Of a stretch of DNA of 64,000 nucleotides, positions 37,171-56,942 are shown piece by piece. Source of the DNA: Elusimicrobiota bacterium (GTDB taxonomy: Bacteria > Elusimicrobiota > Elusimicrobia > Elusimicrobiales > UBA9959). The first letter of the stretch is position 1. Each line of letters opens with the position of its first letter. Under the pieces are notes generated by a model. The model was given only the letters and a program-made list of their open reading frames with translations, was not told the origin of the DNA and ran no database searches. Where the stretch lies: assembly GCA_026388155.1 (NCBI GenBank), contig JAPLKI010000006.1:68401-132400 (forward strand). The letters are read 5' to 3'. Position numbers and translations under genes: made by a program.

Positions 37171-38331
37171 ATGAAACTGCTTGAATACGAAGGCAAGGAA
37201 ATTTTTGAAAAGTACGGCCTGCCTCTGCTAAAAAGGATAGGCGTGCTTAAAATAGGCGATAACCCGGAAAAACTGAAGTTTGACGGCCAGGGCCCCTGGG
37301 TAATAAAGGCCCAGGTGCTGGCCGGGGGCCGCGGCAAGGCGGGCGGCGTTAAAATAGCCAACACCGCCGACACGGCGCGTGAGCTGGCGCAAAAAATGCT
37401 CGGGATGCAGCTTATAACGCACCAGACACAGGGGCGCGCGCTTACGGTGGAGGAAGTGCTGGCGGAAGAAGCCTGCGACATTGAAAGGGAAATTTACATT
37501 TCAGTGGTGCTTGACCGCAAGGAGGGTGTGCCGGTGGTCATCGCGTCGGCCGAGGGCGGCATGTCCATAGAGGAGCTTGCAAAAACCCGGCCCGAACTTA
37601 TAATTAAAACGCCCGTGGACCCGGATTGCGGCCTGCTTGACTTCCAGGCGCGCGAACTCGCCTTTGGCCTGAAAATGCCGGCGGGCGTGTTCCGCGAATT
37701 TACGGAACTCGCTAAAGCCCTGGTGCGGCTGTTCATTGAGCAGGACGCAAGCCTGGTTGAAATAAACCCCCTTGCCATAACGCGCGCAGGGAAGCTGACG
37801 GCCATAGACTCAAAGATAGTGACCGACGACAACGCCTTTTTCCGCCATAAAGAACTGGCCTCAAAACCGGACCATGAGACCTCGGAAATTGAGAAAGAGG
37901 CCAAGGCCATAGGCATAAACTATATCGGCCTTGACGGCAATATAGGCTGCATGGTGAACGGCGCCGGGCTCGCCATGGCTACCCTTGACACAGTGAAACT
38001 TGCCGGCGGCAACGCGGCGAACTTCCTGGACGTGGGCGGCGGGGCCACGGTGGAGCAGATAACCAAAGCTTTCCAGATAATATTGAAGGACGAGAAGGTA
38101 AAGGCGATACTCATCAATATCTTCGGCGGCATAATGAAATGCGACAATATAGCCGCCGGCGTGGTTGAGGCCTCAAAAAAAGTGAGCATAGGCGTGCCGC
38201 TCGTTGTGCGGCTTGAAGGCACCAATGTGGAGCAAGGCAGGGCGATACTAGCCGCGTCAGGCATAAAAATAGAGCAGGCCGGTTCGCTTTGGGAAGCCGC
38301 GCAGAAAGCGGTGGGCGCAATCAGAGGCTAG
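37171..38331 (+). CDS. sucC: succinyl-CoA synthetase beta subunit
   Basis: MKLLEYEGKEIFEKYGLP…, ATP-grasp, GGRGKAGGVK; ends with TAG. Confidence 0.9.
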   Translation: MKLLEYEGKEIFEKYGLPLLKRIGVLKIGDNPEKLKFDGQGPWVIKAQVLAGGRGKAGGVKIANTADTARELAQKMLGMQLITHQTQGRALTVEEVLAEEACDIEREIYISVVLDRKEGVPVVIASAEGGMSIEELAKTRPELIIKTPVDPDCGLLDFQARELAFGLKMPAGVFREFTELAKALVRLFIEQDASLVEINPLAITRAGKLTAIDSKIVTDDNAFFRHKELASKPDHETSEIEKEAKAIGINYIGLDGNIGCMVNGAGLAMATLDTVKLAGGNAANFLDVGGGATVEQITKAFQIILKDEKVKAILINIFGGIMKCDNIAAGVVEASKKVSIGVPLVVRLEGTNVEQGRAILAASGIKIEQAGSLWEAAQKAVGAIRG

Positions 38332-42036: not shown

Positions 42037-43581
42037 ATGCTTATCGCTTTCATGCGCAAACTCCGCATAGTCACACTGGTAGCGGCTATCTCTGTCTGCG
42101 TCTATTTTATAGCCCGGGTGATACTATTCTCCTACTCGGATTACACAAGGCTGGAAAAGCTCTTCGGCCTGTTCCTGCTGCTCGGCGAAACCTATATACT
42201 GGTGCACGCCTTCGGCTATATGATGAACGTCTTCACGCTGACCTCCTGGCGAGGCGAGCCCAAACTGGTAAAACCGGAACCCGGCCAGGAACCGTCGGTG
42301 GCCATAGTGGTGGCGGCAAGGCACGAGCCAAAAGAAGTGCTTGAGGGCACTATAATCACCTTCCGCAACGTGGATTACCCGAATAAGACCATCTACTTTC
42401 TGGACGACTCCTCGGAACAGGCATACAAGGAGGAGGCCGACGCTCTGGCGCGCGATCACGGGATAAAAATATTCAGGCGCGAAGCGCGCCACGGCGCCAA
42501 GGCCGGCATAGTCAACGACTTTCTGCGCGGCATGACCGAGAAATATATAGCCATCTTCGACGCGGACCAGAACCCGATGCCTGATTTTCTCAATGAAATA
42601 GTCCCGATACTTGAAGGGGACGAGAAACTGGCCTTCGTTCAGACTCCGCAGTTCTACACGAACATCGGAGAAAGCCCCGTGGCAAAAGGAGCGGCCATGC
42701 AGCAGGCCATCTTCTACGAGACCATCTGCGAAGGAAAGAACGCCACTGGCTCCATGTTCTGCTGCGGCACCAATGTGATTTTCCGCAGGGAAGCGCTGCT
42801 GGACGTGGGAGGTTTCGAGGAGGAATTTATTACCGAGGACTTCGCCACCTCCGTGAATCTGCATATAAAAGGCTGGCGTTCCTGGTACCACAACCATGTG
42901 GTGGCTTTCGGACTGGGCCCCGAGACCCTGCCGGCCTATTTCAAGCAGCAGGCCCGCTGGGCCGGCGGCACCATTAGCGTTTTCCGCAAACTGCTCAGCA
43001 CTCTTTCCAGACACCCTTTCAGCCTTTCCCCCGCCCAGTGGTGGGAATATATGCTCGCCGGCACCTATTATTTCGTCGGGTGGGCATTCTTCTTTCTGAT
43101 GATCTGCCCTATAGCCTACCTGCTTTTCAATGTCCCCTCGTTTTTCCTGTATCCCCAGATATATCTTGCCGCTTACATACCGTATTTCTGCCTGACACTG
43201 CTGATATTCTTCGGGACGATGAAGGAGCGGCATTACAACATCAAGCAGATCTACTACGGTCTTATACTCGGCTCTCTCTGCTTCCCGCTGCTTATGCGGG
43301 CCGCCGTATACGGCCTGCTTGGCAAACGCATGACATTCGTGGTGACAACAAAAGGCAAGGCCGAAATAATGCCGCTATCGGCCCTTTGGCCCTACGGCGT
43401 GATGCTGGGACTCAATATTGCGGCTTTCGCTGTAGGCCTGACGAAGTTCAGCCATAATCCCTACCCGGTGGGCGCAAACATGTTCTGGGTCGCCTATCAC
43501 CTTTTTATACTCTGGAATATTTTCTTTTTCAACCAGCTGCCGGTGCTTGGCAGGGAGGAAAAAGCGAAATGGCGGGCCTGA
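42037..43581 (+). CDS. processive family-2 glycosyltransferase (cellulose/chitin/hyaluronan-synthase-like), membrane-embedded
   Basis: D, DxD (FDADQ), QTPQFY, FCCGTN, ED…TS, QQARWAGG (QxxRW); TM helices at both ends; no PilZ domain. Confidence 0.8.
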   Translation: MLIAFMRKLRIVTLVAAISVCVYFIARVILFSYSDYTRLEKLFGLFLLLGETYILVHAFGYMMNVFTLTSWRGEPKLVKPEPGQEPSVAIVVAARHEPKEVLEGTIITFRNVDYPNKTIYFLDDSSEQAYKEEADALARDHGIKIFRREARHGAKAGIVNDFLRGMTEKYIAIFDADQNPMPDFLNEIVPILEGDEKLAFVQTPQFYTNIGESPVAKGAAMQQAIFYETICEGKNATGSMFCCGTNVIFRREALLDVGGFEEEFITEDFATSVNLHIKGWRSWYHNHVVAFGLGPETLPAYFKQQARWAGGTISVFRKLLSTLSRHPFSLSPAQWWEYMLAGTYYFVGWAFFFLMICPIAYLLFNVPSFFLYPQIYLAAYIPYFCLTLLIFFGTMKERHYNIKQIYYGLILGSLCFPLLMRAAVYGLLGKRMTFVVTTKGKAEIMPLSALWPYGVMLGLNIAAFAVGLTKFSHNPYPVGANMFWVAYHLFILWNIFFFNQLPVLGREEKAKWRA

Positions 43582-43624
43582 CAACAACTTCGGCGTTCGC
43601 GCAAAAGACGACGGTTGAACTGGC

Positions 43625-43681
43625 GCTTTAAACCCCGCACTTTGGCCGTTTCGGAAAAAGTGCGGGGCAAAGGGAGGAGAG
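43625..43681 (+). promoter_or_regulatory. Family-B hairpin copy B4 fused to SD (…AAGTGCGGGGCAAAGGGAGGAGAG-ATG)
   Basis: ccccgcactttggccgtttcggaaaaagtgcggggcaaagggaggagagATG. Confidence 0.5.
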
Positions 43682-43924
43682 ATGGGCGTTGAAAAAGCAG
43701 AATTAATAAAAATGCTGGAGGAGGCCTTCTTTTTGGAAGAGCAGGCCATGCCGATATACAGCCGCCACCTTAAGACCGCCCTGTTCTGGAGAGGTCTCAA
43801 CGCCGCCACGCGGGAGCAATTGCGCATACAGCTGGGCATACTTGAAAAGGAATCCAACCGGCACGCGAAAGTGCTCGGTGAGATGAAAAAGAAAATTGAG
43901 GAGGACAAACGGAATGTTTTCTAA
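43682..43924 (+). CDS. small helical protein, half of a possible split ferritin-like four-helix bundle (E…ExxH)
   Basis: 80 aa; EEAFFLEEQ … EKESNRHAKV. Confidence 0.35.
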   Translation: MGVEKAELIKMLEEAFFLEEQAMPIYSRHLKTALFWRGLNAATREQLRIQLGILEKESNRHAKVLGEMKKKIEEDKRNVF

Positions 43925-44144
43925 AGAAGACTACATCAAGTACTTCCTCCAGATAAGGAAAGTGGAGCTTACCATGCGGGATAAATTCCTTGGCTATTCC
44001 CAAATCGTGGACGACCCGAAATTAAAGAAATTTTTTTTCGGCCTGCACCGGGAAGAGAACGCCCATTACAAGATAGTGACCGGCATGCTTGAAACTTTTG
44101 GTTATAAGGAAACACAGGGCGGGCCGGAAGGAAACCTTAAATGA
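43914..44144 (+). CDS. small helical protein, second half-ferritin-like partner (E…ExxH)
   Basis: 76 aa from MFSKEDY; …HREENAHYKIV; overlaps previous gene. Confidence 0.35.
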   Translation: MFSKEDYIKYFLQIRKVELTMRDKFLGYSQIVDDPKLKKFFFGLHREENAHYKIVTGMLETFGYKETQGGPEGNLK

Positions 44145-44941
44145 AAACCTTCCGCTATTTTGACTGCGGCATATTTAAAGCACTGATCCTGTTTTCATCC
44201 CTGCTTTTTGCCAACGGTCCCGGCTTCGCCTTTTCGCCCACAGGCTACCCCGGAGCAGTATGGATGCTGTCAGGCAGGGACACAAGCGGTATAGACGGGA
44301 CCAACACCCAGGGCATGGTCAGGCAGGGCGTTGAACTGCTGCGCCTCAGCGGCGGGCGGAGCCTGCAGGTTTACGGGCGCTATAACTGGCGGTACAGAAA
44401 TATAAATCAGGATTATTATAACGCTTACACCCCGTATGTCGGGACAATGTTTTCATTCAAGCGCCTGGACCTGGGCGCCGAGTTCGGCTGGCCGCGCTAT
44501 ACCGCGCTCTCCAACAGCAGCAGGGATTATAATATATTCGCCAACTGGTCCCGATACTGGGGACTGAAGGAATGGAGCAGGGACTCACTGATAAAGGCGC
44601 TTCCGTTCTCTACCTGGGGAAACGCGTCCTACGACCTGGGCAACCAGAACGGCTCTTCCACGATGGGCTGGGCAAAACTGGAGGCGGACCTGTTCTGGCT
44701 GCCGCACAACTTTATGGCGGGCCCGTACGCCTCGTATAACTGGCGCCTGCGCACCCGCAACGCGGATTATTTTAACATCAATGAGGTTTGCGCCGGCTTT
44801 GAAATAGGCAACGGCGAGATAGAACTTGGCACGCAATACGCGTGGCGGCGGTATCCGAAGATCAACCAGCGGGATCGCGGCCTTGAACTTTTTATCACCA
44901 TTTATAAGGCCTGGGACCTTAAGCCTAAAAATTCCCGTTAA
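44141..44941 (+). CDS. hypothetical W/Y/N-rich exported protein (possible outer-membrane beta-barrel)
   Basis: N-terminal hydrophobic segment; alternating aromatic pattern; last gene of GT2 operon. Confidence 0.35.
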   Translation: MKTFRYFDCGIFKALILFSSLLFANGPGFAFSPTGYPGAVWMLSGRDTSGIDGTNTQGMVRQGVELLRLSGGRSLQVYGRYNWRYRNINQDYYNAYTPYVGTMFSFKRLDLGAEFGWPRYTALSNSSRDYNIFANWSRYWGLKEWSRDSLIKALPFSTWGNASYDLGNQNGSSTMGWAKLEADLFWLPHNFMAGPYASYNWRLRTRNADYFNINEVCAGFEIGNGEIELGTQYAWRRYPKINQRDRGLELFITIYKAWDLKPKNSR

Positions 44942-44956
44942 GTTAACCTTCCCCGG

Positions 44957-46540
44957 CTATCTGCGGGCGGCCTGTCTGAAATCCTGGGGGGACGGTATGG
45001 CACCGGGCGGAATTCCAGCATACGCCGGCAACGGCGACCACTTCCCGTCTTTCTGCTTGTAAATATACCCAAGCCCCAACCTCATCACGGCGGCATTTTC
45101 ATTTTCCGCCATAAAATCAGTGCCGGGTATTTCCGAGGCGATAGCGGCGGGCTTGCCTGCGTCTTTGGTATAGGGGTTATGCCGCAGGAATTCAGCGACA
45201 AGCCACGACAGTGCCTGAAGACTTGCGGGTTTGGTTATTACCTGCGGCTTTACGGTGTCCGCGTAAAAACTTTTTCCGATCAATTTCACGGCGAACGGTA
45301 AGACGACTATGGACGGAAGCGGGATTTCCCTGACGTCTTTTGCCTGCATTTTGGTGCCCGACAAAGCCGCGCCGTGTTCCGGCACGAATATAACCACCGC
45401 ATTGCGGCCTGATCTTTCCACCTCCAGGAAAAACTCTTCCAGCTGCGCCGTCATCTCGGTAAGCCTCTGTCTGTAGGAGGCAGCGTCGTCCGGCCCCCTG
45501 GAACCGCCGGCCTTATGCGTGCCTATATGAAGATTGGCGGTATTGTAATAAAGCGCGGCCCGCGGCGCCTTGGAATCTTCCCTGGCCTTCCAGAATTTAT
45601 GCAGCGCCGCATTGTCGGCGTAGAGAGGCGTACCGTCGAACATCTGGTATTCCACCGGCAGGCCCGCTATGCCTAGTGGCGCGTCCGCGTGGCCGTATTT
45701 TTGCACACCCGCGGAAAAATCAGCGTACACACCGTCATGGCTGAACATCGTGTATGTCTTAAAGCCAAGTTCCCGCAGGTTGTCCATAAGATAACAGCTG
45801 GCGGGGGCGGCGGCATAAAGCTGCGGGTGCGGCATTTGTCCGCACGAAGATCTTAAAACACGCAGTGCCGCCGGCCCGCTATAGGAGCAGGCCGCGCTGA
45901 AATTGGTGAAAACATAATCAAATTTAGAAAGGAACGGCATCAGGTCGGAGCCTGAATCTTTAATATCCTCCCATGACAGCGAGCAGATGTGCAATATAAG
46001 CACGTCAAAAGGCGGGGAGTTTTTTGCGGGCGGAGAGAATTCCACTACCCTGCCGCTTTCCTTTTTATAGAAAGCCTCAGGCGACTCGCTGCCCAGATCC
46101 GGGATAGTCCGCTTAGGCTGCATGACCCACGCCGCAGTAAGGATACAATAGGCGGACATGGCAAGCAGCACATACTTTTTGCGGGAAGCTAACAGCGTTA
46201 TCGCAAAAAGAACGATCCCGGCCGAGAGCATCCATAAACTTATGGATTGCCGGACAAATTCCATAACATACTGCATTGACGGACGGGTAACGGGATCCGC
46301 CAGAAAGGAAACAAGTTTAGAGACTGGAGGCAGATAAGATTCCCGCCATAGCAGGGCGAGCGCCGCAACCGGAACCGCAACCGCTTTAAGGCCGGTAATA
46401 AGGCGGGGTTTTGAGAAGACCGGAGGGACCGGCAGATGCACGATAACCGCGAGCGCCGCCGTCAGGAATATGTCCAGGATGATATACCCCGAAAAGGAAA
46501 GCGCAGCCGCCGCAAATAAGTACCAGTACCAGAAGATCAT
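44957..46540 (-). CDS. membrane-anchored alkaline-phosphatase-superfamily protein, BcsG-like phosphoethanolamine transferase candidate
   Basis: 4-5 N-terminal TMs then sulfatase-like domain with ICSLSWEDI motif. Confidence 0.5.
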   Translation of the reverse strand: MIFWYWYLFAAAALSFSGYIILDIFLTAALAVIVHLPVPPVFSKPRLITGLKAVAVPVAALALLWRESYLPPVSKLVSFLADPVTRPSMQYVMEFVRQSISLWMLSAGIVLFAITLLASRKKYVLLAMSAYCILTAAWVMQPKRTIPDLGSESPEAFYKKESGRVVEFSPPAKNSPPFDVLILHICSLSWEDIKDSGSDLMPFLSKFDYVFTNFSAACSYSGPAALRVLRSSCGQMPHPQLYAAAPASCYLMDNLRELGFKTYTMFSHDGVYADFSAGVQKYGHADAPLGIAGLPVEYQMFDGTPLYADNAALHKFWKAREDSKAPRAALYYNTANLHIGTHKAGGSRGPDDAASYRQRLTEMTAQLEEFFLEVERSGRNAVVIFVPEHGAALSGTKMQAKDVREIPLPSIVVLPFAVKLIGKSFYADTVKPQVITKPASLQALSWLVAEFLRHNPYTKDAGKPAAIASEIPGTDFMAENENAAVMRLGLGYIYKQKDGKWSPLPAYAGIPPGAIPSPQDFRQAARR

Positions 46541-46653
46541 AATTTACCCGTGAACCACGCACTTTTTCCCAAGAGGCAGGGGAAACCGCTACGGCGGTGC
46601 CCGCCAGTCGCGGACAACGCCATAGGCCCGCGACAGGCCCGAGGCACTGTGGG

Positions 46654-47658
46654 TCAATCCCCGGAAGGGGTCCCGTCAAAGTGCGGGGTAAACAGCCATT
46701 CCAGGCTTTTATCCGAACACTCAAAACGCCCGGCGCCACAGGAACCATAAAATTGAGCGCGCATTTCGTCAGAAGAAAGTGCCCAGTCGCGCTCCTTGTT
46801 GATGTTAAACCAGATAACAGCCTTTACCGCCGGAAATCTTTTCCCGATGGAACCCAGCAGCCGCCCTATCCATAGAACCTTGTCGCCGCCGTTTGAGCAG
46901 GAGGCTGTTTCGGTCAAAAAAACCGGTTTTAAAGGAAACGCCTTTACCGTCCTCTCATAGGCCGCGCCGAACATTTTCCAGGGCTTTACCCATTTCTGCC
47001 AGGTCTTTTGGCCGCCGCCCCAGTTATAGGCGTCTATGCCTATTACATCGGCGCAGTCGTCGCCCGGATAGTAATTTTCAAACCGGTTCCATGCTTCGGC
47101 GGGAACATCTTCCGCGTTAACGGAAAAAACGAATTTAGCGGTTACATTGTTCTGGTTTAAAAATATCTTCCGGACCCGGCGGAACGCTTTTACATAAAGC
47201 TCGGGCGCCGCATTTACGCCCGACCAGCCGTACCAGTCGCTGTTAGGCTCATGCCCGAACCGTATAAACACCGGCCCACCGCCGGCTTGCCTGGCGAAAC
47301 GGGCTATATAAGCGTCGTATTTGCCGCCGGCTATGGCCGGCAAAAGGGTGTCGCGCCTGAGGTCTTGAAGATACGGCTCCCATGTTATCATCGGGACCGC
47401 CCCGGAAGCCCGTATAGCCTTTACCGCCGATGCCGGGAAAGAGGTTTTCCAGTTTATATAAATGTTGCGGATGCCGGCTTTTTCGGCTGAAATAACTCCG
47501 GTCGGCTCGGATACCCCGATAACACAGACCGGATATTGTTTTTCCATTTCGGTTTTCCGGCGAAAAAGCTCAGGACTCTCCTTGCGAAGGATAAAAAAAG
47601 CCGCCGCAGCGGCGATAATAACTGCGGCGACTGCGGCTTTTATCCACTTCATGATCAT
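46654..47658 (-). CDS. glycoside hydrolase family 26-like (beta-mannanase/endoglucanase-type)
   Basis: signal peptide; FGHEPNSDWYGW block typical of GH26 catalytic acid region. Confidence 0.5.
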   Translation of the reverse strand: MIMKWIKAAVAAVIIAAAAAFFILRKESPELFRRKTEMEKQYPVCVIGVSEPTGVISAEKAGIRNIYINWKTSFPASAVKAIRASGAVPMITWEPYLQDLRRDTLLPAIAGGKYDAYIARFARQAGGGPVFIRFGHEPNSDWYGWSGVNAAPELYVKAFRRVRKIFLNQNNVTAKFVFSVNAEDVPAEAWNRFENYYPGDDCADVIGIDAYNWGGGQKTWQKWVKPWKMFGAAYERTVKAFPLKPVFLTETASCSNGGDKVLWIGRLLGSIGKRFPAVKAVIWFNINKERDWALSSDEMRAQFYGSCGAGRFECSDKSLEWLFTPHFDGTPSGD

Positions 47659-47683: not shown

Positions 47684-48820
47684 TCAGAGATTTTCCGGGT
47701 AGACAGCCTCAAAAACCGTGCCCCCGGGACCGGAAGAACAGGAAACGCTGCCTTTCAGGTATTTCTCGGTAAGAAGCCTTATGCTGTAGGTGCCAAGGCC
47801 GCGCCCCACCCCTTTGGTGGAGAAGGATTTTTGGAATATCTGCAGCCTTGTGCTCTCGCTCATGGGAGTGGGATTACTCACCGAAAAAGCTATTCCCGCA
47901 GGCGTTTGGCGGCATGAAACTTTTATCTCCGCCCCGGCCCTTTCGGCTTCCACTGCGTTCTTTACCATGTTGCCGATGACCCTTGAGAGAAGAACGCCGT
48001 CGGTTTTCAGAGACAGGTCCTGTGAATCGGGGGTTATCGTGATCTTACGCCCTTTTGCCGCCTCGTGGCCGGAAAAGACGTCCGCTATCTCTTTAATGAG
48101 TTCCAGCGCCCTGACTTCGGCCGCCTGCGGGTTTAGTTCTCCCCTCTCGGCGGCGGCCAGGTCCCTCTGGGACAGGATCTGCTCTACCAGCCGCCTGGCG
48201 GCGTCATGAGCCGTCGGCACATAGGTAATTATCTTCTCAGGACCGAGCATCAGCATAAGCTCCGTAAGCCCGCTTAAGCTTCCCGCGGTGTTAAGAACGT
48301 CATGGAAGAAAATGTGTTCAAGCGCGGTCCTGCGCTTTTCATGGCTTATGTCCACAAAGGAAAATATAATGTGGTCCTGGTTCTCCTGTTTGAACGGCTG
48401 GCTTTTGACCAGCAGGTTGAGGTCGTCGCCTCCGGCTTTAGTGATGATCCTGCACTCTTCCACCGACTCGGTCCCCGCAAGGGCGGCGGCCAATGCTTTG
48501 GCCGCGCCGCATTCACGGCAGAACTTCGTGGTTCCGCAGCCGCCCGGGGTCTCCGCGGAATGTTTACATCCCATTATCTCGCCCGGACGAAACCCGATAA
48601 TCTCTTTTTTTACATCTTTTCCGCTGTTGAAATCGCGGAACGCTTTATTGACAAAAACCGCCTGCCTGTGTCTGTTAAGTATCAGAACAAAACCGATTAT
48701 GGCGTCAAGAAGCTCCGCAAGCAGCGGGATATGATTGATAAATTCCCGCTGGCGCGCGACTTCATCCGCATCGGCTCTCTCCGCGGGCAAAAACTCAGTA
48801 TGCATTTTCGCGTCGGACAT
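47684..48820 (-). CDS. cytoplasmic sensor histidine kinase with Cys-x10-Cys-x6-Cys-x2-Cys cluster
   Basis: H-box FFHDVLN, HATPase_c (N, G1, G2 blocks); GCKHSAETPGGCGTTKFCRECG in N-terminal sensor region; no TM. Confidence 0.75.
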   Translation of the reverse strand: MSDAKMHTEFLPAERADADEVARQREFINHIPLLAELLDAIIGFVLILNRHRQAVFVNKAFRDFNSGKDVKKEIIGFRPGEIMGCKHSAETPGGCGTTKFCRECGAAKALAAALAGTESVEECRIITKAGGDDLNLLVKSQPFKQENQDHIIFSFVDISHEKRRTALEHIFFHDVLNTAGSLSGLTELMLMLGPEKIITYVPTAHDAARRLVEQILSQRDLAAAERGELNPQAAEVRALELIKEIADVFSGHEAAKGRKITITPDSQDLSLKTDGVLLSRVIGNMVKNAVEAERAGAEIKVSCRQTPAGIAFSVSNPTPMSESTRLQIFQKSFSTKGVGRGLGTYSIRLLTEKYLKGSVSCSSGPGGTVFEAVYPENL

Positions 48821-48834
48821 TCAGCCTCCCTTTG

Positions 48835-48870
48835 CCCCGCACTTTGGCCGCTTCGGAAAAAGTGCGGGGG
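48835..48870 (-). promoter_or_regulatory. Family-B hairpin copy B5 fused to SD of histidine kinase gene
   Basis: minus-strand reading: cccccgcactttttccgaagcggccaaagtgcggggcaaagggaggctgaATG. Confidence 0.5.
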
Positions 48871-50610
48871 TTACTTCACTTTCCCGAACCGCCTCAGGGC
48901 GGCGTTAACCCTGGCCACTACGATGTTCTGCTTGAAAGGCTTGGTGATATAGTCGTCGGCCCCGAGCTGCAGGGCAAGTTCCTGGCTTTCGTCGGAGGTT
49001 TCAGTGGTCAGTATTATTATCGGCATATCGGTGATGCCGAGGCCCTGCCTTATGCCTTTTATAAGGTCCAGCCCGTTCATGTGCGGCATGTTGATATCGG
49101 AAATCAGCAGGTCGGGGGATTGCGCCGCTATAGAGGTAAGCGCCTCTTCCCCGTCCACGGCTTCTTTCACTTCATAGCCCTGCGCCTCCAGGGCTTTCCG
49201 CAGCAACAGGCGAATGATCGGTATGTCGTCCACCACCATCACGCTCATCGGCCCGCCCGCAGCCGGGCCCGGGCTCCGGGCCTGCGCGTCGGCCTCGGCC
49301 TCCGTCTGAAGGACAGGCGCAGTGGCTGGGGCAGGGGCGGCCTCAGCCGGTTTTTTGTCCAGGAGCAGGTACGGACTTATCTCGCCAAGCGAAGTAACGC
49401 CTTCTGCAAGATGCCAGAGCGCGTCACGGGTCATAGTCCGGAGGTTACCTGAGTCCAGCGCGATGCGGGTTATTTCCGCACCTTGAGCGCCGGAATTTAT
49501 AACGGTCTTTATGGCGTCAGTGATAAGAAGCAGCTCAACAATGGAGGTGCGGCCGGCATGCCCCTCGTTACCGCATTCTTTGCAGCCCTTTGAAACATAA
49601 TACTTTTCCGGATAGCCATGCTCGCGGAGGGCCGCCAGGATGGCCGGGTCCGACAGGTCCCGCGGAACTTCCGCTTTGCAAGCCGGACAGAGCTTTCTGA
49701 CCAGCCGCTGGGCCGTGATCGCCAGCAACCCGGGGGAGATTTTAAAGCGCTCGACCCCCATATCCACCAGGCGGGAAATAGTGGAAACCGTGTCATTGGT
49801 GTGCAGAGTGGAAAACACCAAGTGCCCCGTCATGGCGGCCTGGAACGCGATATCCGCCGTTTCATGGTCGCGTATTTCGCCCACCATTATGATGTCGGGG
49901 TCCTGCCTTAGCACCGAGCGGAGCACGGCCGCGAAATTAAGCCCCTGCTTCTCGTTGACCTGCACCTGGTTTATGCCTTGAAGCTTATACTCTATGGGGT
50001 CTTCCACGGTGGTTATGTTGGTGCCTTCGCTCCTGCATTTGTTCAGCACCGAGTAAAGCGTGGTCGTCTTGCCTGAGCCGGTAGGTCCCGTGACAAGAAT
50101 TATGCCCTGAGGGGCCTCTATGCATTTTTCAAAGGCCCGCGAAATCTCGGCCGCGAAGCCGAGTTTTTCAAAAGGGACCTCGGCCGCCCGCTGGTCCAGT
50201 ATGCGCATTACCACTTTTTCCCCGTACGAGGTGGGCAGGGTGGAAACCCGCAGGCCCACTTCCACGCCGGATATTTTGAGCTTTGCCCTGCCGTCCTGCG
50301 GCCGCATGTGGTTTGAGATGTCCAGTTCGGCCATTATCTTTATGCGGGCGACCAGCGGCCCGGCCGCTATGTGCTTGGGGATGGACATGATATTTTTCAG
50401 CACGCCGTCTATCCTCACGCGCACGTGGCTGATCTTCTCTTCGTGCTCTATGTGTATGTCGGAGGATTTCTGCCTGTGTGCCTGCGAAATTATGGAGTTG
50501 ACCAGCATTATAACCGGGGTGCCTACCTTGCTGTCTTCTTCCGCGGCGGCTTCCCCCAGCACTTCTATCTCTTCCGGGGCTTCCACTTTAGCCAGCAGTT
50601 CGGCTATCAC
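48871..50610 (-). CDS. GspE/PilB-family secretion ATPase (N2+CTD) fused to C-terminal CheY-like receiver domain; GTG start
   Basis: Walker A LVTGPTGSGKTT, Asp box DPIEY, Walker B, His box GHLVFSTLHTND, CPAC…CKEC zinc motif; C-terminal MSVMVVDDIPIIR…DLLISDINMPHMNGL…TKPF. Confidence 0.85.
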   Translation of the reverse strand: MIAELLAKVEAPEEIEVLGEAAAEEDSKVGTPVIMLVNSIISQAHRQKSSDIHIEHEEKISHVRVRIDGVLKNIMSIPKHIAAGPLVARIKIMAELDISNHMRPQDGRAKLKISGVEVGLRVSTLPTSYGEKVVMRILDQRAAEVPFEKLGFAAEISRAFEKCIEAPQGIILVTGPTGSGKTTTLYSVLNKCRSEGTNITTVEDPIEYKLQGINQVQVNEKQGLNFAAVLRSVLRQDPDIIMVGEIRDHETADIAFQAAMTGHLVFSTLHTNDTVSTISRLVDMGVERFKISPGLLAITAQRLVRKLCPACKAEVPRDLSDPAILAALREHGYPEKYYVSKGCKECGNEGHAGRTSIVELLLITDAIKTVINSGAQGAEITRIALDSGNLRTMTRDALWHLAEGVTSLGEISPYLLLDKKPAEAAPAPATAPVLQTEAEADAQARSPGPAAGGPMSVMVVDDIPIIRLLLRKALEAQGYEVKEAVDGEEALTSIAAQSPDLLISDINMPHMNGLDLIKGIRQGLGITDMPIIILTTETSDESQELALQLGADDYITKPFKQNIVVARVNAALRRFGKVK

Positions 50611-50616
50611 CTTGTC

Positions 50617-51084
50617 CTAGTTAAACAGCTCCTCCATGCAGCTTTCTATATCGCGGGGCAGAGCGTATAGCGGCACGGCGGCGCGGGCGGTCAGCGCCTG
50701 GATGTCGGACAAAGCGTCCAGATTAAGCGGGTCGGCCGTCGCTATCTGTATTTCATCGTCCGAGGCGGCCACGGGCAGGACCAGGTACTTGCGGCAAAGC
50801 CTTTCCGAAAGAATTGTCAGCCCGAACTTATCCACTTTTTCCGGAGTTATTTTGACGCTCTTCACGCGGTAAACGGCCAGTACCGCCTGGGCAAGCTGCT
50901 CCGGAAAAACGGCCTTATCATCAATAAGGGCCTGGGACAGCAAAGGCCGCTGCTCGGAGCGCAGTTTAAGCACCAGGGCCGGGCTGACGACGGGTATTGT
51001 CGCCACGGCTTTCAGCAGCCATTCATCTTTGAAGCGCCATGTTTTTTCCATATTCAAATCTCCCCGCGCTGAAATTATTTTCAA
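50617..51084 (-). CDS. GspE N-terminal (T2SSE_N/MshEN-type) domain protein, separated from ATPase by single in-frame TAG
   Basis: …YLVLPVAASDDEIQIATADPLNLDALSDIQALTARAAVPLYALPRDIESCMEELFN*; same frame as downstream ATPase ORF. Confidence 0.75.
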   Translation of the reverse strand: MKIISARGDLNMEKTWRFKDEWLLKAVATIPVVSPALVLKLRSEQRPLLSQALIDDKAVFPEQLAQAVLAVYRVKSVKITPEKVDKFGLTILSERLCRKYLVLPVAASDDEIQIATADPLNLDALSDIQALTARAAVPLYALPRDIESCMEELFN

Positions 51085-51093
51085 GACACTACA

Positions 51094-51450
51094 CTAGTAC
51101 AGGCCCTTCTGCCGGAGTTCGGCGTCGGTAATTCCGAAGTGATGGGCTGTTTCGTGCATTACCACGTTGCGTATTTCAGCCTTGATATCCCGCCCGTCCA
51201 GGCAGGCGGCCTCGATGTTATCCTTGAAAAGCGTTATTTTATCCGGCATGGCTCCGCTGTAAAAACGCCCCCTGTCCGGCAGCGGAACGCCCTCGTAAAG
51301 CCCCAAAAGTTTCCCGCTGAATTTTCCCGCCTGCGCCGCGCCCGGCCGGGCGCGGACAGTGATAACGACATTTACCATCCGCTCCTTAAAAAAAGCGGGC
51401 AATGCCCTTACGGCGACCGCCACTGCCCTCTCAAATTCATCAATGGTCAT
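51094..51450 (-). CDS. small zincin-like metallopeptidase (HExxH)
   Basis: 118 aa, MHETAHHFGITDAEL. Confidence 0.55.
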   Translation of the reverse strand: MTIDEFERAVAVAVRALPAFFKERMVNVVITVRARPGAAQAGKFSGKLLGLYEGVPLPDRGRFYSGAMPDKITLFKDNIEAACLDGRDIKAEIRNVVMHETAHHFGITDAELRQKGLY

Positions 51451-54758: not shown

Positions 54759-55283
54759 CTATTTATCCGTTACCGGGAGAACAGACTCTTGCGTTATGCC
54801 GGGGAGTTCCACCCCATAACGGGGATCGACCGTTACTTCCAGCTTCAGGGCGTCAAACCAAAAGCCCGTACCGGCCAGTTTTTTTATCTGTTCGTTCAGT
54901 CCAAAGCGCTCGGCGCGCACCTGCTTTGACTCTCCGGCTCCCGCTTTGGCGAGACGCAGTTCTTCCACGCGGAAAGGCACGTTCCAAACCCCGTTTTCCG
55001 GGCTGTCTCCGTCTTTGATCAGGCGAAGGCGCAGGGCATAGCGCAGTACAATGCCCTCCACCGCGGACGCGGATGAATTGTGCACGGTAAAGATAGCGCG
55101 CAGCTTGTCCGTCAGTTTCTGGTGCGCCGTAAGCTTCAGCCCGGCTACCGGCATGAACGGCGTCCAGGTTTTGGCGCGCGGAGATGAAGACTCCCAGGAT
55201 ACCGCCGTCACCCGCACCTGCGCGGACGCGGCCGCGGAGAATAACAGAAAAAAAATCGCGAAAGGAATTGTTTTTTTTATCAT
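54759..55283 (-). CDS. secreted hypothetical protein
   Basis: signal peptide MIKKTIPFAIFFLLFSAAASAQV. Confidence 0.4.
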   Translation of the reverse strand: MIKKTIPFAIFFLLFSAAASAQVRVTAVSWESSSPRAKTWTPFMPVAGLKLTAHQKLTDKLRAIFTVHNSSASAVEGIVLRYALRLRLIKDGDSPENGVWNVPFRVEELRLAKAGAGESKQVRAERFGLNEQIKKLAGTGFWFDALKLEVTVDPRYGVELPGITQESVLPVTDK

Positions 55284-55879
55284 ATTTTATTATCGCCGAT
55301 GGAGCACTTTTTAAGCTCTTCCTCAAGTTTTTCCGGGATAATGCCTACAACTTCGGCCCGGGTGACAAGCTGGCCGCATTGCAGGCCAAGCATGATCGAA
55401 ATAAGACTGTACTTCGGTCCTTTACCCAGACCGGCCGCAAGCGACTCAAGCAAAAACCGCTGCGAGCCCTTAAGGGACTTCACCCCGGACGGGATAAAGC
55501 TTCGTTCTAAAGCGTTGGAAAGCGAACCCGTAAACGCATTGAGTATGATGTTTCCAAGTTCCGAAAGCAGCAGATCTTCCGCCTGGTTAATATCGACCAG
55601 GCGCGGAAAATCGTAATCGGGGAAACACATTGAGATATGCTTTCTATCCGCGGACCGGAAAATCAGCATGGCGGCAAAAGGGTGGTCTTCGGAAACTTCA
55701 AAATAGACGGCCGTCCCTCCCTCTCCCGCGCGGCGATCAAGCGCTAGTTCGCTTAAAGCGCCGCGTGACACGCTCATATCCGCCAGGCTCCAGCGGCCGG
55801 TGGAGGCTTTTGAGAGGCTGCTCAGGCATTTTTCAAGGCCCGCGGCTGCGATGGTTTCAAGGGCGCTGTCAGGGTTCAT
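55280..55879 (-). CDS. CheC/CheX-family phosphatase-like protein (copy 1)
   Basis: LSELGNIILNAF (ExGN-type motif); 199 aa; 65-70% identical to 56334..56942. Confidence 0.5.
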   Translation of the reverse strand: MNPDSALETIAAAGLEKCLSSLSKASTGRWSLADMSVSRGALSELALDRRAGEGGTAVYFEVSEDHPFAAMLIFRSADRKHISMCFPDYDFPRLVDINQAEDLLLSELGNIILNAFTGSLSNALERSFIPSGVKSLKGSQRFLLESLAAGLGKGPKYSLISIMLGLQCGQLVTRAEVVGIIPEKLEEELKKCSIGDNKI

Positions 55880-56333: not shown

Positions 56334-56942
56334 TTACCGCAAATCCCCTGAAAATTTTCCGCCGGAAGCTTTTTCAAGCTCTTCCTCAAGTTTTTTCGGG
56401 ATAATGCCTATAACTTCGGCCTGGGTGACAAGATGGCCGCATTGCAGGTCGAGCATAATTGAAATAAGGCTGTATTTCTGCTCTTTATCAAGGCCGGCTA
56501 AAAGGGACTCGAGCAAAAATTGCGGCTTGCCCGTCAGGCACTTCGGCTCGGACGGGACAAAGCTTAGTTTTAAAGCGTTGGAAAGCGAGCCCATGAACGC
56601 ATTGAGTATGATGTTTCCAAGTTCCGAAAGCAGCAGTTCATGCGCATGGTCTATATCGGCCATACGGGGGAAAGCGAAACCAAGGAAACACTTTGAGATG
56701 AGCTCTATATCAGCGGACTGAAAAATTATCATGACGGTGAAAGGATGGGCTCCGGAAATTTCAAAATATACGGCCGTCCCGCCCTTTCCCGCGCGGCGCT
56801 CAAGCGCTATTTCGCTTAAAGCGCTGCGGGATACGCTCACATCCGCCAGGCTCCAGCGGCCGGCGGATACTTTTGAGAGCTTTCCCACGCACTTTTCAAG
56901 GCCCGCGACTGCGATGGTTTCAAGGATGCTGTTAGAGTTCAT
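56334..56942 (-). CDS. CheC/CheX-family phosphatase-like protein (copy 2)
   Basis: LSELGNIILNAF motif; paralog of 55280..55879. Confidence 0.5.
   Translation of the reverse strand: MNSNSILETIAVAGLEKCVGKLSKVSAGRWSLADVSVSRSALSEIALERRAGKGGTAVYFEISGAHPFTVMIIFQSADIELISKCFLGFAFPRMADIDHAHELLLSELGNIILNAFMGSLSNALKLSFVPSEPKCLTGKPQFLLESLLAGLDKEQKYSLISIMLDLQCGHLVTQAEVIGIIPKKLEEELEKASGGKFSGDLR

Follow-up and report, generated by a model that had tools for sequence, protein, structure and literature searches.

Motor ATPases of the PilB, GspE and EpsE type, among which PilB of Geobacter metallireducens (5TSG) is the solved example closest to the present case, share the order N1 domain, flexible linker, N2D and CTD, and carry a full set of ATPase motifs. 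N1 domains of the MshEN type that bind cyclic diguanosine monophosphate (c-di-GMP) contain two tandem 24-residue motifs of the form RLGxx(L/V/I)(L/V/I)xxG(L/V/I)(L/V/I)xxxxLxxxLxxQ, placed 5 residues apart, and MshEN can co-occur with a receiver (REC) domain (Wang et al. 2016, PMC5013675). Receivers are also described as acting on pilus motors in trans: a preprint reports PATAN-REC regulators that bind the pilus motor of Synechocystis (bioRxiv 10.1101/2021.06.11.447907), the response regulator DrdR is reported to act on PilB/PilT in Xanthomonas (PMC13507683), and in the Pil-Chp system of Pseudomonas PilG and PilH are described as receivers acting on PilB in trans. As far as these accounts go, they set a precedent for motors whose activity or localisation is under two-component control. 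Here we describe a 64,000-nt stretch of an Elusimicrobiota genome (contig JAPLKI010000006.1, positions 68,401 to 132,400; hereafter the window), in which a conserved gene for a PilB/GspE-type ATPase with a C-terminal receiver is divided by a single in-frame TAG into an upstream N piece and a downstream C piece. On balance we favour, with modest confidence, a fixed nonsense mutation at a domain boundary of this gene, the C piece being produced by re-initiation.

The divided gene lies on the minus strand. Read on the coding strand, the junction is TGC ATG GAG GAG CTG TTT AAC TAG GAC AAG GTG ATA GCC (SCMEELFN-stop-DKVIAELL in translation), with TAG at 50619-50617 and, 6 nt later and in the same frame, GTG at 50610-50608. 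Both codons and their common frame, as well as a 579-aa open reading frame (ORF) opening at the GTG, had been noted in a preliminary description of this DNA and were borne out by the sequence. The same description opened the N piece at TTG 51084, giving 155 aa. The upstream ORF can indeed open there; most likely, though, the N piece starts at ATG 51051 and is 144 aa long, because this ATG has GGGGAG 8 nt upstream and yields an N-terminus (MEKTWRFKDEW) that matches that of every orthologue (MxxxWRFxDEW). A 144-aa product is also given by gene callers. In NCBI the N piece is a separate 144-aa 'hypothetical protein' (exact 144-aa entry P0121), and the C piece is a 100% match to an NCBI/Logan protein (P0001) labelled by NCBI as 'ATPase, T2SS/T4P/T4SS family'.

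Profile searches against Pfam assigned the N piece to MshEN (PF05157, 57.7 bits against a cut-off of 23.1, E 1.2e-15, residues 66-143) and the C piece to both T2SSE (PF00437, 434.9 bits against 24.9, E 2e-130, spanning profile positions 6-368 of 370) and Response_reg (PF00072, 107.9 bits against 30.2, E 4e-31). In the N piece the MshEN match runs to residue 143; T2SSE begins to match 31 residues past the GTG. Walker A (GPTGSGKTT), Asp box, Walker B (DPDIIMVGEIRD), His box (TGHLVFSTLHTN) and tetracysteine were all present, and the corresponding columns (G322-T331, D384-D395, T408-N419, C455, C458, C490 and C493) were invariant in a 23-sequence alignment (A1). In the receiver, D609, D652, T682 and K704 (numbering of the merged protein) were likewise invariant in this alignment and the D608/D609 pair was conserved; the codon at 49096-49098 specifies the Asp predicted to be the phospho-acceptor. 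The N domain of T2SSE_N/MshEN type, the intact ATPase motifs and the complete receiver proposed in the preliminary description were thus all recovered.

A search with the joined protein returned more than 100 orthologue clusters, almost all of them from Elusimicrobia and at 58-65% identity to it, in which MshEN, T2SSE and Response_reg form one chain of 715-750 aa (~725 aa). No unsplit allele above 65% overall identity was found among 5.8 billion protein clusters. All three domains were present in one protein in 118 of the 120 best clusters, in a list that is ranked by score and in which breaks elsewhere in the gene would not show. Eighty loci were recovered from GTDB species representatives, and wherever an N part was adjacent to a C part with a receiver (52 loci) the two formed an uninterrupted single frame without exception. 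Orthologues carry Ser, Ala, Pro, Thr or Arg where the stop lies. The codon is TCG (Ser) in the two closest loci (L005 and L009), so that a single C>A change explains the TAG. The stop is therefore private to this lineage, and the orthologues, single-ORF and free of it, uphold the original proposal of one gene split by one in-frame TAG. When the N piece alone was used as protein query, the matches listed contained only the N piece itself, in line with its NCBI entry.

Only one further cluster in the best 120 was without MshEN (P0091, ENA ERZ1426847). As in the window, a member of the same orthologue group is here called as two genes, and the break is in the region of the linker between N1 and N2: the first gene codes for MshEN (184 aa), and after a 46-nt gap and a frame change comes the second, which codes for T2SSE–REC (546 aa). 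Unlike in the window, the two pieces are in different frames and are not divided by an in-frame TAG. On gene coordinates alone, this break appears to be an independent event of the frameshift type. In a neighbour-joining tree P0091 was nested in another clade and was not sister to the window sequence, which stood alone on a deep branch; a shared ancestral split was rejected on the grounds of both clade and frame. The P0091 gene lies directly after a GspE–PilC–PilM cluster, and downstream of it come a short gene with HATPase_c and one for an FKBP.

The preliminary description had also considered a sequencing error, in which case the real codon would be a sense codon and the gene an ordinary single ORF. 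Metagenome-assembled genomes (MAGs) do sometimes carry consensus errors. Against such an error in the present case, four Logan contigs (SRR25046533, SRR25046532, SRR20698639 and SRR20698641), assembled separately from four runs in two accession series, matched the window at 100% identity along 2.2-6.7 kb, the TAG junction included, in agreement with the NCBI MAG; one of the four occurred in 9 samples. Moreover, the change is a substitution and no homopolymer indel, and its surroundings (AACTAGGAC) are not repetitive. With identical contigs in four runs and a substitution in such a context, a sequencing or assembly error is effectively excluded, and the stop is genuine. The TAG allele was the only one seen in any sample. 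GTDB species genomes and JGI metagenomes were scanned for the junction sequence with the stop codon left free (GAGCTGTTTAACNNNGACAAGGTGAT); neither set gave a match, so that no alternative allele or second copy of this genome was found in them.

A genuine stop could still be read through. Programmed readthrough or recoding (whether through a suppressor tRNA, through pyrrolysine or through a leaky context), which the preliminary description had kept as an option, would give a 726-aa protein, possibly together with the short N piece. In its favour, the stop is in frame, the frame downstream of it is fully conserved, and low natural leakage is possible at any stop codon. However, the stop occurred in none of the >100 orthologue clusters or the 52 genomic loci, and TAG is the terminator of 14 of the 54 large non-overlapping ORFs in the window (26%). 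These include sucC (37171-38331), a POR subunit gene and the BcsG-like gene, in accordance with the earlier statement that TAG is a genuine stop here and that sucC ends on it. When the window was scanned for pairs of long open frames with one stop between them, no further conserved gene proved to be interrupted in this way; in the only other striking case, TAG 18880, what comes after the stop is a typical signal-peptide start. Nor is there a tRNA gene within the window. Genome-wide reassignment of TAG was rejected, as TAG ends 14 of the 54 large ORFs and no other window gene is interrupted. Given the absence of the stop from orthologues and the ordinary use of TAG as terminator, readthrough lacks support and we regard it as very improbable; the TAG is an ordinary lineage-specific nonsense mutation and not a recoding signal.

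The position of the stop was examined in an AlphaFold2 model of the joined sequence (mean predicted local distance difference test score, pLDDT, of 82.8). The model has a compact N domain at residues 10-142 (pLDDT about 90) and places the stop, residue 145, in a four-residue coil between a helix at 132-142 and a short helix at 147-155, with the pLDDT falling from about 90 to 62-70 over residues 141-180. The stop is thus predicted to sit at the boundary of the folded N1 domain and a flexible linker. The receiver was again modelled at a pLDDT of about 90. The closest solved structure was Geobacter PilB 5TSG (E 5e-117, query residues 32-559 aligned), while the N1-lacking GspE and PilF structures 1P9R and 5IT5 aligned from query residue ~174-183 onward. 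Since the core alone matches these N1-lacking chains, the cut separates N1 from an N2D–CTD–REC unit.

In the explanation that we favour, the ancestral locus would have encoded an N1 domain of the MshEN type, a hexameric ATPase of the PilB/GspE type and a C-terminal CheY-like receiver in one gene. One substitution, most simply TCG (Ser) to TAG, would have introduced a genuine stop between N1 and the linker, and ribosomes terminating at this TAG would re-initiate at GTG 50610 or at one of three later in-frame starts. The products would be a free 144-aa N1 domain and an N1-less motor–receiver protein, the core of which would be the N2D–CTD portion that matches the N1-lacking GspE and PilF chains. 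Control of such a motor through its receiver would persist, the neighbouring Cys-cluster histidine kinase being the probable source, and any tethering or regulation conferred by covalent attachment of N1 would be lost. We see about even odds that the motor–receiver part is still produced and retains at least some function.

With regard to re-initiation, the 6-nt distance between stop and start agrees with the in-frame geometry expected of termination–reinitiation. The preliminary description saw no Shine-Dalgarno (SD) sequence ahead of the GTG, which is nearly right, except that a weak AGGA core lies 4 nt upstream and the preceding 20 nt pair with the anti-SD at -3.9 kcal/mol. Genes of the window use GGAG-type SD sites, about a third of them being without one. 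Three later in-frame starts precede the ATPase domain, 30, 54 and 108 nt past the TAG (Table 1).

Several observations weigh against this reading. The pairing at GTG 50610 compares with a median of -5.75 kcal/mol over 38 window genes, and 32% of random positions equal it. Most orthologous loci have GTC, GTG, GTT or GTA at this position (some distant ones have ATG, TTT, ATC, ATT or GAG), and by this comparison the GTG is just the Val codon that the family keeps here and did not evolve as a start. Translation of the C piece is itself something we infer. Mean identity to the close clade was 0.427 for the N piece versus 0.708 for the core; the resulting ratio of 0.60 was the lowest of 18 sequences, the others ranging from 0.63 to 0.78. 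The REC/core identity ratio of the window sequence was also low (0.91). The over-divergence of the N piece could reflect relaxed constraint or, as the receiver shows a similar shift, a general property of a long branch; the branch of the window sequence is long and isolated, identity in conserved columns not exceeding 72%. Finally, since the Logan contigs are all 100% identical, they may represent one clonal population, and 'fixed' may then mean one strain.

Part of this evidence would equally fit plain loss of function, with a recent nonsense mutation leaving little or no motor–receiver protein and the locus being a young pseudogene. Loss of a pilus or secretion ATPase is a common route to phage resistance. 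A null allele would accord with a gene whose perfect colinearity is broken only by one private substitution, with the weak SD and the unmodified conserved Val codon at the point of restart, with the slight over-divergence of the N piece and with the absence of nearby pilus or secretion partner genes depending on the ATPase gene; the independent linker-region break in P0091 shows, in addition, that sporadic lesions occur. On the other hand, no secondary lesions were seen. At conserved columns, defined as those kept in all other sequences with at most one other deviant allowed, the window sequence deviated at 1 of 17 in the N piece, 4 of 176 in the core and 1 of 44 in the receiver, and intact orthologues had similar counts. 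Both frames being intact and conserved residues kept, the sequence gives no sign of decay. The split allele is also the only one seen in any sample, and a stop 6 nt ahead of an in-frame start is the classical geometry of translational coupling. These points leave room for a very recent null, and we consider loss of function a serious possibility, at somewhat below an even chance.

At the other extreme, the locus might be maintained as a functional two-polypeptide motor of the PilB–REC family, in which a free N1 domain acts in trans, the N1-less ATPase–REC protein is made by termination–reinitiation and the Cys/His-cluster kinase drives the motor; we think this unlikely. In a weaker form of this proposal, low-level readthrough of the TAG would supply full-length protein alongside the split forms. 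As regards the preliminary description as a whole, its account of the split, the domains, the TAG stop and the neighbouring kinase stood, whereas the unusualness of the fusion, readthrough and sequencing error did not; of its four options for the origin of the split, the nonsense lesion and the stop–reinitiation split both still fit the sequence, which does not separate them.

Table 1. Coordinates of the divided ATPase–receiver gene, its candidate restart codons and neighbouring features (window positions, except for the kinase orthologues, which are given in their own loci)
Feature	Coordinates	Strand	Basis or remark
N piece: N1 (MshEN/T2SSE_N-type) domain, 144-codon ORF	50620..51051	-	Pfam MshEN; colinear with residues 1-144 of ~725-aa orthologues
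In-frame premature TAG, residue 145 of the ancestral single protein	50617..50619	-	sequence itself
GTG, nearest candidate re-initiation codon; conserved Val of the motif xD-x-V-I-x-D-L-L	50608..50610	-	
C piece: linker, N2 domain, ATPase core and C-terminal receiver; 579 codons + TAA	48871..50610	-	
GspE/PilB-type ATPase domain, C-piece residues 31-411	49378..50520	-	Pfam T2SSE
CheY-like receiver, C-piece residues 457-568	48907..49242	-	Pfam Response_reg
Later restart codon, GTG	50586	-	-1.5 kcal/mol anti-SD
Later restart codon, GTG	50562	-	-3.5 kcal/mol anti-SD
Later restart codon, ATG	50508	-	-6.0 kcal/mol anti-SD, but long spacing
GC-rich hairpin with 11-bp outer stem, between the ATPase–REC stop and the kinase start	48835..48869	-	RNA fold
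Soluble histidine kinase, 378 aa, PAS-like sensor with conserved Cys/His cluster	47684..48820	-	Pfam HATPase_c
Kinase orthologues	L006 6795-7925; L007 9753-10874; L011 9751-10881; L060 9749-10879		
Weak GH26-like ORF	46654-47658	-	
BcsG-like phosphoethanolamine transferase	44957-46540	-	
GT2 cellulose-synthase-like glycosyltransferase	42037-43581	+	

The soluble Cys-cluster histidine kinase that had been reported next door is present, its gene starting 50 nt downstream of the ATPase–REC gene on the same strand. The protein matched HATPase_c in Pfam, with a weak match to PAS_9, and matched no specific NCBIfam family. Residues C85, H87, C95, C101, C104 and C123, together with the FFHD H-box, were invariant in 5 orthologues. 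The Cys/His pattern (GC-x-H...GGCGTT..C..CG...ECRI) lies inside the PAS-like sensor, and the cluster may be a metal or redox site. Orthologues of the kinase (52-55% identity) were located directly downstream of the ATPase–REC gene in 4 of ~17 related Elusimicrobia loci (L006, L007, L011 and L060), and by this adjacency the kinase is a plausible cognate partner of the fused receiver. The earlier claim that the two genes belong to the same operon is likewise plausible; against it stand the hairpin between them and a pairing found in only 4 of the ~17 loci.

This strong hairpin had a folding energy of -24.4 kcal/mol (z = -1.8) and no U-tract. It was rejected as a terminator, as it has no U-tract and was not called by a terminator scan. 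The four Logan contigs share an end within the hairpin, at 48841, which suggests that the assembly graph breaks at the inverted repeat.

On its other side the kinase gene is adjoined by an exopolysaccharide-type gene set (42037-47658), for which no link to the ATPase was shown. Upstream of the N piece, a Zincin_1 gene (51094-51450, minus strand, stop TAG) shares one reading frame with the N and C pieces, which looks coincidental. Further away, two ORFs of ~200 aa each (55280-55879 and 56334-56942, minus strand) had no Pfam match and look like tandem paralogues. Their upstream regions are also similar, and the first 256 nt of locus L001 were 100% identical to one region and 85% identical to a second (56369-56625).

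In the preliminary description the joining of a GspE-type ATPase to a receiver was called unusual. Database searches gave a different picture: MshEN–T2SSE–REC is the standard architecture of the orthologue group, with >100 clusters in at least 5 phylum-level groups, and the same architecture was found in Gemmatimonadota, Vicinamibacterales, Calditrichota and a deltaproteobacterial MAG. Because it occurs in multiple phyla, the fusion is a conserved architecture and no oddity of this genome. Orthologues from Gemmatimonadaceae and Vicinamibacterales (L022 7533-10238 and L029 7428-10172) have the form MshEN–T2SSE–REC–GAF, with about 900-915 aa. No published description of a fused PilB/GspE–REC family, and no experimental data on it, were found in the literature searched. 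The C piece scored below the NCBIfam equivalog cut-offs for both PilB (TIGR02538, 494.7 against 675.65) and GspE (TIGR02533, 504.7 against 630.25), the absence of N1 lowering these scores.

Genes for a platform protein (PilC/GspF), pilin, secretin or alignment complex were absent from the ORFs scanned in the window. In six Elusimicrobia orthologues (L005, L009, L010, L013, L014 and L015) the neighbours were unrelated and variable, including genes for an FKBP isomerase, a sigma factor, adenine deaminase and phosphoketolase. In a Calditrichia orthologue (L047) a prepilin peptidase gene is next downstream.

With MshEN domains of the MshE type the N domain of the window shares a PF05157 match above threshold and an N-terminal position on a GspE-family ATPase. 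The tandem c-di-GMP motif was absent from the N piece, the best segment of which matched it once, at 5 of 11 key positions and with no R, G, G or Q; N domains of orthologues had 4-7 of 11. Owing to the lack of this motif, the N domain resembles the non-binding XpsE type of Wang et al. 2016 (PMC5013675). Sensing of c-di-GMP by the N piece was rejected as unsupported after this motif comparison.

For annotation, the 144-aa and 579-aa ORFs represent one interrupted gene and should be read neither as two genes nor as a case of recoding. Compared with PilB and GspE, with which it shares the domain order and motifs named at the outset, the window protein adds a C-terminal receiver on a roughly 35-residue disordered linker (residues 566-598 of the model), has no pil or gsp operon around its gene, either here or in most Elusimicrobia orthologues, and in this genome has its N1 domain in a separate ORF. 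The natural split allele offers a ready-made test of the need for covalent attachment of N1. Biologically, the intact PilB–REC family is of more interest than the stop. To the extent that PATAN-REC, DrdR and PilG/PilH are described in the accounts cited above, the family has in common with them a phospho-receiver coupled to a pilus-type motor ATPase. In contrast to those trans systems, the receiver is here covalently fused to the C-terminus of the ATPase, and the candidate kinase is a small, soluble protein with a Cys-cluster PAS domain and not of the CheA type. The fused family would thus be a cis version of the receiver-to-motor control that operates in trans in cyanobacteria, Xanthomonas and Pseudomonas.

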